From: Escherichia coli
GTDB taxonomy: Bacteria > Pseudomonadota > Gammaproteobacteria > Enterobacterales > Enterobacteriaceae
DNA: 64,000 bases
Assembly (NCBI RefSeq): GCF_030013595.1
Contig: NZ_CP122768.1
Reading direction: 5' to 3' (one strand)
A program made the position numbers and the translations under genes. Numbering within the stretch: position 1 is the first letter of the stretch; each line of letters begins with the position of its first letter. Below, piece by piece: positions 24,721 to 29,335 of the stretch. Below the pieces are notes generated by a model. That model made no database searches and had not been told where the DNA came from. It worked only from the letters and a program-made list of their open reading frames with translations.

Positions 24721-27644
<2,924 letters not shown>

Positions 27645-27887: not shown

Positions 27888-28135
27888 ATGACAAATAAAC
27901 ACCTATCACTGTTTTCTCCTTTTATGCTGACAGAAAAAAAATAAAGCCATGTAATCGTATCGTTATGGCTCCTATGACGACCTGGTCAGCTAATCCTGAT
28001 GGAACCATCTCTGAGCAAGAACTCGAATATTATAAACGTCGCTCACAAAATATTGGTTTAGTAATTACAGGATATACCTATGTCACGCCAAGGAAATTCA
28101 GGCATCGAAAGGAACTGGCTGGTTTCCGTTAATGG
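27888..28135 (+). pseudogene. Decayed fragment of Old Yellow Enzyme-type NADH:flavin oxidoreductase
   Basis: Frameshifted ORF with OYE N-terminal pattern (LFSPFML ... NRIVMAPMTTWSANPDGTISEQELEYYKRRSQN); stops and frameshifts. Confidence 0.4.
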
Positions 28136-28611
28136 ATTAAATATCTATTACTCTCCCGAGTGTAAAACTATCAAACCAATGAGTAACCGATACAGCCTCG
28201 CAAATTCTTTCAGATAATTAACCCGTCACTGCGGCACGTTCTCTCATAAGGCGTGCCTGCTGTGTAATCCAGTATGGATCCAGCATAGTTGACGGCTTAA
28301 TAGACTCAATTCCTTTCCCAGGTTACCAACAACGATATCTTGTATAACACCCCAGAAGATACGACATTATGATGAGATGAGGTATGCTCCTCAGCGCCAA
28401 TCAACGCCAGGGCTGGGCCAGTTTTGAGATCAGACTCATTCCCGGACTGACTTCAGGCGACATATATCAATGACGTTGGGGCAATAAAAGATAGCCGATG
28501 TAATACATCTATTCAAATTTGTGATACATGTCAAAAAATTGGTTGACCAAACTCGTTATTTATATAAGGGCACTTACGAAGTGCACTCTTTTTTAAAGCG
28601 AGGAAGTACCA

Positions 28612-28713
28612 ATGAAAGAGAATAAAGTACAACAAATCAGTCATAAACTGATTAATATCGTTGTTTTTGTCGCAATTGTAGAATACGCCTATTTATTTCT
28701 CCATTTCTATTAA
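28612..28713 (+). CDS. ykgR: Small hydrophobic protein (33 aa), YkgR-like
   Basis: ATG with RBS; position upstream of ykgM; name recalled from memory. Confidence 0.45.
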   Translation: MKENKVQQISHKLINIVVFVAIVEYAYLFLHFY

Positions 28714-29042
28714 TAACGGCAATAAACTGTTCACTTCAGTGATATTAAAAAATATGCATCCTCTCCCTTTTTTGTAAGTAATTATTATATCCGTGGGAGA
28801 GGAATACACGCTGTCCGGCAATCAATCAAACTGCGATAAATCATCGGCCAGTAAAATGGAGATAGCCTCCATTCTCGAAAAATTCATACTCTCAGCGAAA
28901 CCATCACTCATCAAGGCGTTTATGGGAGCGTCGCCAATGGCTGCTAACAATGCCAGACTTCCCCGTTGCCGAAATTCCACATACCACAAATGGTCACAGG
29001 GATTGGGTGTTGAAATGATCCGGATGAGCATGTATCTTTATG

Positions 29043-29068: not shown

Positions 29069-29335
29069 ATGATGAAGCCCAATATCCATCCTGAGTATCG
29101 TACTGTGGTGTTCCACGACACCAGTGTTGATGAGTACTTTAAAATCGGCTCGACTATCAAAACAGACCGTGAGATTGAGCTGGATGGCGTAACGTATCCG
29201 TACGTGACAATTGATGTCTCCTCTAAATCGCACCCGTTCTATACAGGGAAGCTGAGAACAGTGGCATCAGAAGGAAATGTTGCACGATTCACCCAACGTT
29301 TTGGTCGTTTTGTTAGCACGAAAAAGGGGGCATGA
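29069..29335 (+). CDS. ykgM: Ribosomal protein L31 paralog (type B, zinc-independent)
   Basis: [17 protein letters not shown] ... L31 signature. Confidence 0.85.

Follow-up and report, generated by a model that had tools for sequence, protein, structure and literature searches.

What controls transcription of ykgR, a characterised small-protein gene of Escherichia coli, and does the DNA directly upstream of it hold a promoter, an attenuator or both? We addressed this question in a window of 64,000 nucleotides (assembly GCF_030013595.1, contig NZ_CP122768.1), the whole stretch of DNA that was analysed. For positions 28540-28612 the initial annotation had proposed a promoter-like element, consisting of TTGACC and a TATA-rich -10 region, followed by a short hairpin and a run of T that could form an attenuator-type control element. 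Our analysis points to an ordinary CRP-dependent promoter with a short 5' UTR, most of which is already documented; the CRP dependence of ykgR is in RegulonDB. We consider it probable that the interval comprises the core promoter and an approximately 43-nt 5' UTR of ykgR, controlled by cAMP-CRP at initiation with class II geometry, and that it contains no attenuator. The strings that had been picked out in the interval are real as sequence, but none of them goes beyond chance. The features on which the argument draws are as follows, in window coordinates.

28520-28535, no strand assigned: CRP box, TGTGA-TACATG-TCAAA, centred at 28527.5, with one mismatch to TGTGA-N6-TCACA
28536-28553, no strand assigned: inverted repeat AAATTGGT-TG-ACCAAACT, which contains TTGACC and resembles, by sequence match, a UxuR/ExuR (GntR/FadR-type) operator
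28557-28562, plus strand: most likely -10 element, TATTTA, weak and without T at -7, starting 29.5 bp past the centre of the CRP box, a distance that would give class II geometry
28569, plus strand: transcription start (G) predicted from geometry only, equivalent to 313285 on the minus strand of K-12, with CRP at -41.5
28570-28584, plus strand: hairpin GCACUU-ACG-AAGUGC, 6 bp with a 3-nt loop, which would span +2 to +16 as a 5'-terminal stem-loop
28589-28594, plus strand: U6 tract, 4 nt past the stem and shortly before the Shine-Dalgarno sequence, invariant in all lineages
28600-28606, plus strand: Shine-Dalgarno sequence GAGGAAG, conserved except for G28606A in E. albertii
28612-28713, plus strand: ykgR coding sequence, 33-aa small membrane protein (RefSeq annotation, Pfam PF28062)
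28759-28803, plus strand: stable hairpin downstream of ykgR that, by its fold and by Term-seq, probably marks the mRNA 3' end

The ATG of ykgR corresponds to position 313242 on the minus strand of K-12, and the gene is followed by ykgM (29069-29335) and then ykgO. Its translation, MKENKVQQISHKLINIVVFVAIVEYAYLFLHFY, is annotated as a small membrane protein everywhere. The stretch from 28300 to 28800 is 100% identical to CFSAN061763 and 95-99% identical to approximately 5,000 other complete genomes, and the window shows no differences from K-12 MG1655 across 28501-28631. We sampled 80 ykgM loci from across Enterobacterales and found ykgR in only two kinds of carrier, E. albertii and a single divergent clade labelled 'E. 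coli' (hereafter L004); exact-protein look-ups added a fergusonii-like lineage. The 78 loci that came neither from E. coli nor from a close relative of it (Citrobacter, Salmonella, Kluyvera, Enterobacter and others) had no ykgR upstream of ykgM. A metagenome scan that excluded the E. coli allele returned three contigs, all of known types, with no new variants. From these comparisons, ykgR appears to be an Escherichia-specific gene that arrived as an insertion, bringing its own promoter and 3' hairpin.

We also noted several features of the surrounding DNA. E. coli O157:H7 strain 3384 carries a ykgR that is annotated as frameshifted, with a T5 run short by one T at the equivalent of approximately 28664. 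Upstream of ykgR, all that is left of an NADH-dependent flavin oxidoreductase gene is an N-terminal remnant of 55 codons (27965-28132; ykgP-type pseudogene region), which adjoins a divergent LysR-type regulator gene (26634-27602). The same layout of LysR gene and oxidoreductase remnant occurs in fergusonii-like genomes, and CFSAN061763, which is identical over 28300-28800, has an intact oxidoreductase gene of 1143 bp. On the other side of ykgR, the ykgM promoter (TTGAAA-17-TATCTT at 29010-29038) matches the constitutive sigma-70 promoter listed for ykgMO (Shimada 2014); in that list the intergenic spacer also carries a mark for H-NS binding.

The non-random property of the interval is its conservation, which for promoter and leader lies far above that of the flanks. 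Over the 115 nt of promoter and leader (28497-28611), 4612 of 5066 E. coli records were at least 99% identical, whereas just 40 of 5077 records reached this level over the surrounding 501 nt. In an alignment of 11 E. coli sequences, for which we deliberately picked the most divergent leaders, diversity was 0.034 upstream, 0.012 in promoter and leader and zero in the hairpin. A common A/G polymorphism at 28585, directly 3' of the hairpin stem, was seen in six of these 11 strains; the stem positions themselves were invariant. Homology to E. albertii and the fergusonii-like lineage begins approximately 25 nt upstream of the CRP box, beyond which the upstream DNA is unrelated.

Both elements of the proposed promoter are present as strings: TTGACC occupies 28543-28548, and an A/T-rich block, TTATTTATATAAG, follows at 28556-28568. 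The interval does contain the ykgR promoter and leader, as had been suggested, but TTGACC is not the -35 element of that promoter. The spacer from TTGACC is 12 bp to TATATA and 14 bp to TATAAG, and at this distance it cannot serve the TATA block as a -35; a consensus scan called no sigma-70 promoter in the interval. The hexamers that lie 16-18 bp downstream of TTGACC are TAAGGG, AAGGGC and AGGGCA, none of which combines A at position 2 with T at position 6, as expected of a -10; the same combination is missing from every hexamer of the TATA block. By a rough position-weight score, the pair TTGACC-14-TATAAG reached 4.8 bits, a value attained by approximately 3.7% of plus-strand positions in the window. 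Given the geometry described below, TTGACC would instead lie within the spacer of a class II promoter, at about -26 to -21.

Just upstream of the interval, and missed by the initial annotation, we found a CRP box, TGTGATACATGTCAAA, that is close to the consensus. It is the sole box with two or fewer mismatches in the K-12 region from 310.5 to 315 kb, where it occupies 313319-313334. The half-sites of the box are invariant and its N6 spacer is variable among E. coli, the fergusonii-like lineage, L004 and E. albertii, and no insertions or deletions separate the box from TATTTATA across these four Escherichia lineages. The literature alone provides evidence of both CRP binding and CRP-dependent expression, through a RegulonDB listing and a SELEX peak. 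The RegulonDB list of CRP targets reproduced in Table 1 of Shimada et al. 2011 (PMC3105977) includes ykgR, with no sign of the direction of regulation. In the same study, genomic SELEX with CRP gave a peak in the 'ykgM<>insE' spacer, and ykgR was grouped as 'not identified by SELEX-chip' (PMC3105977); the annotation used there apparently lacked ykgR (PMC3105977). Because there is no other good box between 310.5 and 315 kb, we infer that the peak corresponds to the box at 28520-28535. Consistent with an activator-dependent promoter, RNA polymerase holoenzyme by itself picked out the ykgM promoter and none upstream of ykgR (Shimada 2014).

The position of this box, together with the A/T-rich block, suggests where transcription would start. 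Within the block, TATTTATA is the only part whose sequence and position are both fixed in all four lineages. TATATA and TATAAG are altered or displaced: most E. albertii sequences carry a mutated TATAAG, and in the fergusonii-like lineage an insertion has moved it. We therefore place the -10 element at TATTTA, with a start at or next to G28569, as the likely arrangement, although the weight-matrix score of TATTTA is poor (0 bits). We took class II as the fit because this is the only known activating position of CRP that comes with a plausible -10. As to the direction of regulation, the abstract of the 2010 paper by Hemm et al. (J Bacteriol 192:46) is said to speak of 'CRP activation of ykgR'. 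Reading of the sequence revealed no -10 for CRP at class I positions, and a comparison by eye with the sigma-32, sigma-E and sigma-S consensus sequences gave no fitting hexamers. The Kim 2012 and Cappable-seq supplements contain no entry for a mapped start near the locus, and the Reg-Seq and iModulon supplements make no mention of ykgR.

The inverted repeat GCACTT/AAGTGC that had been described ahead of ykgR is present, and its end lies 27 nt from the ATG. Of its six base pairs, three are G-C, and its predicted stability is -4.8 kcal/mol in isolation and -6.2 kcal/mol in context. The 43-nt leader as a whole folded at -8.2 kcal/mol, compared with -6.4 +/- 2.1 kcal/mol for shuffled sequences (z -0.84), and 35 of 200 shuffles folded as well as the native sequence; Rfam returned no match in the leader. 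With the start placed by geometry at G28569, the hairpin is probably a 5'-terminal structure of the mRNA.

Conservation across enterobacteria, which had been put forward as a check on the hairpin, was found only in part: the stem is unchanged in the fergusonii-like lineage, but it is weakened in L004, where A28580C breaks one pair and leaves 4 bp (-3.1 kcal/mol), and across the 80 loci ykgR is absent outside Escherichia. The E. albertii stem has five substitutions, all of them transitions, and retains five of its six pairs: one A-U pair became G-C by a double change, two pairs changed to G-U and one loop-closing pair was broken. In a simulation, five or more pairs were kept with p = 0.5 when only transitions were permitted and p = 0.065 when any substitution was permitted. 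The retention of RNA pairs in E. albertii, where the DNA palindrome is reduced to 3/6 positions, weakly favours constraint at the level of RNA over constraint at the level of DNA, and for the same reason we rejected the hairpin as a DNA operator. We also rejected the idea that it is the terminator of the upstream oxidoreductase gene, as it moves with ykgR in lineages with unrelated upstream DNA. A candidate second helix, in which CUCUUUU would pair with the region around the start codon, was discarded because it is broken in the L004 lineage. In a single strain, E. coli YPE10, an IS2 element (1581-2950 in that locus) lies inside the hairpin, at approximately 28577, and parts ykgR from the CRP box and the -10.

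Downstream of the hairpin, the T-run ends 17 nt before the ykgR ATG. In the minimum-free-energy fold of the 43-nt leader, CUUUUUU pairs weakly with GAGGAAG, and we considered whether this might be a FourU-type RNA thermometer; the helix contributes only approximately -2 kcal/mol and does not appear in the centroid. Because both strands of this helix are invariant, it shows no covariation. The invariance of the U-run would be better explained by a translation-enhancing element of the S1-binding type than by a role in a terminator. A much more stable structure follows the gene: a hairpin, CCUCUCCC...GGGAGAGG, lies approximately 45 nt after the ykgR stop codon, without a U-tract, and the 91-nt stretch that contains it folds at -21.2 kcal/mol (z -2.65). 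Term-seq in K-12 identified a strong 3' end at 313047 on the minus strand, with a score of 48378, which was classed as 'orphan' (Adams et al. 2021). This end corresponds to approximately 28808 in the window, 5 nt past the downstream hairpin. It is probably the 3' end of the ykgR mRNA, perhaps a processed one.

Together, these observations are consistent with a simple sequence of events. cAMP-CRP bound at 28520-28535 would control ykgR at transcription initiation, standing in for a -35 element and recruiting RNA polymerase to the weak -10 at 28557-28562. Transcription would begin at or next to G28569 and produce a 5' UTR of approximately 43 nt, in which the 5'-end hairpin may offer at most modest, ompA-like protection from 5'-end-dependent decay and in which the conserved U6 tract, as a putative S1-binding enhancer, and GAGGAAG would drive translation. 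The transcript would then continue to the stable hairpin approximately 90 nt beyond the stop codon, with the leader hairpin and U-run not acting as an attenuator.

We considered other accounts of how transcription starts and proceeds into ykgR. According to the initial annotation, TTGACC and the TATA block form the promoter, and the hairpin with its U-run is an intrinsic-terminator-type attenuator that governs transcription into the gene. A lenient terminator scan does flag GCACTTACGAAGTGC and ACTCTTTTTT, and the U-run is invariant, but the match is no commoner than in shuffled sequence: in 2 kb the scan found one site, against 1.4 +/- 1.2 in shuffles. The stem, of 6 bp here and 4 bp in L004, is far weaker than those of typical E. 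coli terminators, and in place of a stable G+C-rich stem with a U-tract 0-2 nt away, the hairpin is followed by ACTC, then TTTTTT and AAAG, leaving four non-U bases between stem and U-run. Neither the predicted folds nor reading of the sequence revealed a competing antiterminator helix, and the leader has no recognisable ligand- or protein-sensing domain. Nor is there a conserved leader peptide: the only ORF across the hairpin (28528-28596) begins upstream of any predicted start, and its ATG is lost in E. albertii and L004. In the Term-seq tables for K-12 (Adams et al. 2021), 3132xx has no 3' end, in contrast to the strong full-length 3' end, although a terminated RNA of approximately 25 nt would probably escape such libraries and is too short for Term-seq to exclude. 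The predicted start, G28569, lies just upstream of the hairpin and not downstream of it, as refutation in the terms of the initial annotation would require, but it would leave no room for an attenuator. Combined with the incorrect spacing of TTGACC for a -35, this evidence makes attenuation very unlikely. A different promoter further upstream is rather improbable. In this arrangement, TTCAAA (28512-28517) and AAAAAT (28534-28539), separated by 16/17 bp, would direct a start at approximately 28546, placing the hairpin inside a 66-nt leader. We ranked it as a rival because CRP, overlapping this promoter, would then become a repressor. The pair has the best sigma-70-like score in the region (approximately 9 bits, a value that only 0.4% of positions in the window attain) and both hexamers are conserved across lineages. 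It nevertheless matches the consensus at only 8 of 12 positions, the consensus scan was silent, and the set of constitutive promoters selected by holoenzyme on its own does not include it; repression by CRP would also conflict with the activation that Hemm et al. reportedly described. The two promoters might coexist, by analogy with gal P1/P2. We retain the CRP-activated class II promoter, with a start at or next to G28569, as the probable source of the ykgR transcript.

Two further alternatives concern what the promoter and leader contain in addition to CRP-dependent initiation. The hairpin may be functionless, a palindrome that arose by chance in a 5' UTR that is young and restricted to Escherichia and that persists only through shallow divergence, so that the promoter, the U-tract and the Shine-Dalgarno sequence alone are functional. 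The unexceptional fold of the leader and the chance-level count of terminator-like sites agree with this, as do the broken pair in L004 and the tolerance of an IS2 insertion inside the hairpin in one strain. The hairpin is also the fastest-changing part of the leader in E. albertii (6 of 15 positions, compared with 7-12% elsewhere), and under the transitions-only model its retention of at least 5/6 pairs after five stem transitions is no surprise. Against it stand the invariance of the stem in the 11 aligned E. coli sequences, the one double compensatory and two G-U-preserving changes that keep RNA pairing in E. albertii while the palindrome degrades, and the lower probability of this outcome if any substitution is allowed. 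Because covariation is weak, a hairpin with little or no function deserves substantial weight, even if we hold complete lack of function to be somewhat unlikely. The second alternative involves the inverted repeat at 28536-28553, which may be an operator for UxuR/ExuR or another GntR/FadR-type repressor; located after the CRP box and before the -10, it would add sugar-acid-responsive repression to activation by CRP. Compared with a functional UxuR site, AAATTGGTATACCAATTT, the repeat is identical at 14 of 18 positions, or at 14 of 16 if the central two bases are set aside, and it is the only match with two or fewer mismatches in the 64-kb window, where 0.02 are expected. That UxuR operator represses when set between the -35 and -10 of a synthetic promoter. 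Natural sites ahead of uxuA and uxuR reach 13-14/18, and the site ahead of uxuR shares the 11-mer TTGGTTGACCA. The repeat is conserved in three lineages and has one change in E. albertii, but this conservation is not specific, because the entire promoter is conserved. Scaled from the window, approximately 1-2 such matches per E. coli genome would be expected by chance, and our attention was drawn to this one post hoc. Genomic SELEX with UxuR yielded one target only, gntP/uxuA; that screen also missed other RegulonDB targets from its own table. An operator at this site is therefore a doubtful proposition. Distinctly improbable, too, is a combination of three layers, in which class II activation by CRP, a hitherto unreported UxuR/ExuR-like (GntR/FadR-type) operator around the TTGACC repeat and a 5'-terminal hairpin and U-tract that tune mRNA stability or translation would act together; if true, it would link an Escherichia-specific small membrane protein to the catabolism of sugar acids (hexuronates) in the gut. 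We continue to regard CRP-dependent class II initiation without an attenuator as the probable reading of the locus.

What is gained is an exact CRP box with a likely class II geometry, the finding that TTGACC is not a -35 element and the removal of the attenuator hypothesis. Beyond correct annotation, the significance of these results is small. The UxuR-box-like repeat is the one lead that could add biology, and it is speculative; if the operator is real, hexuronate use would be the first physiological context for YkgR.

Several known systems invite comparison. Like the trp, pyrBI and his attenuators, the ykgR leader has a short G+C-containing hairpin followed by six U upstream of a coding sequence. 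It differs from them in its weak 6-bp stem and in the 4-nt spacer ahead of the U-run, and also in having no antiterminator, conserved leader peptide, ligand- or protein-binding domain or mapped leader 3' end. With the UxuR/ExuR operators of the hexuronate regulon, the repeat shares a TTGGT-N2-ACCAA inverted repeat, an A-rich left flank and a location between the -35 region and the -10; it differs at the right flank (AAACT rather than AATTT), and ykgR is not a reported target. The hp1 element of the ompA 5' UTR, from the work of Emory, Bouvet and Belasco in 1992, is said to be a 5'-terminal stabilising stem-loop. The ykgR hairpin would resemble it if transcription starts at G28569, as it would then begin at +2 and in none of the four lineages would more than 1-2 nucleotides at the 5' end be unpaired; it is weaker than the ompA stem-loop, and its 5'-terminal position follows from the predicted start. 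There is also a likeness to class II CRP promoters such as galP1 and melR, in which CRP is centred at -41.5. The ykgR promoter departs from these in that TATTTA has no T at the usual -7 position, its start is placed by geometry and the direction of its regulation is taken from what Hemm et al. (2010) reportedly described. It resembles them in the distance of 29.5 bp from a near-consensus CRP box to the start of an A/T-rich, -10-like hexamer, in lacking a usable -35 element and in being listed as a CRP target.
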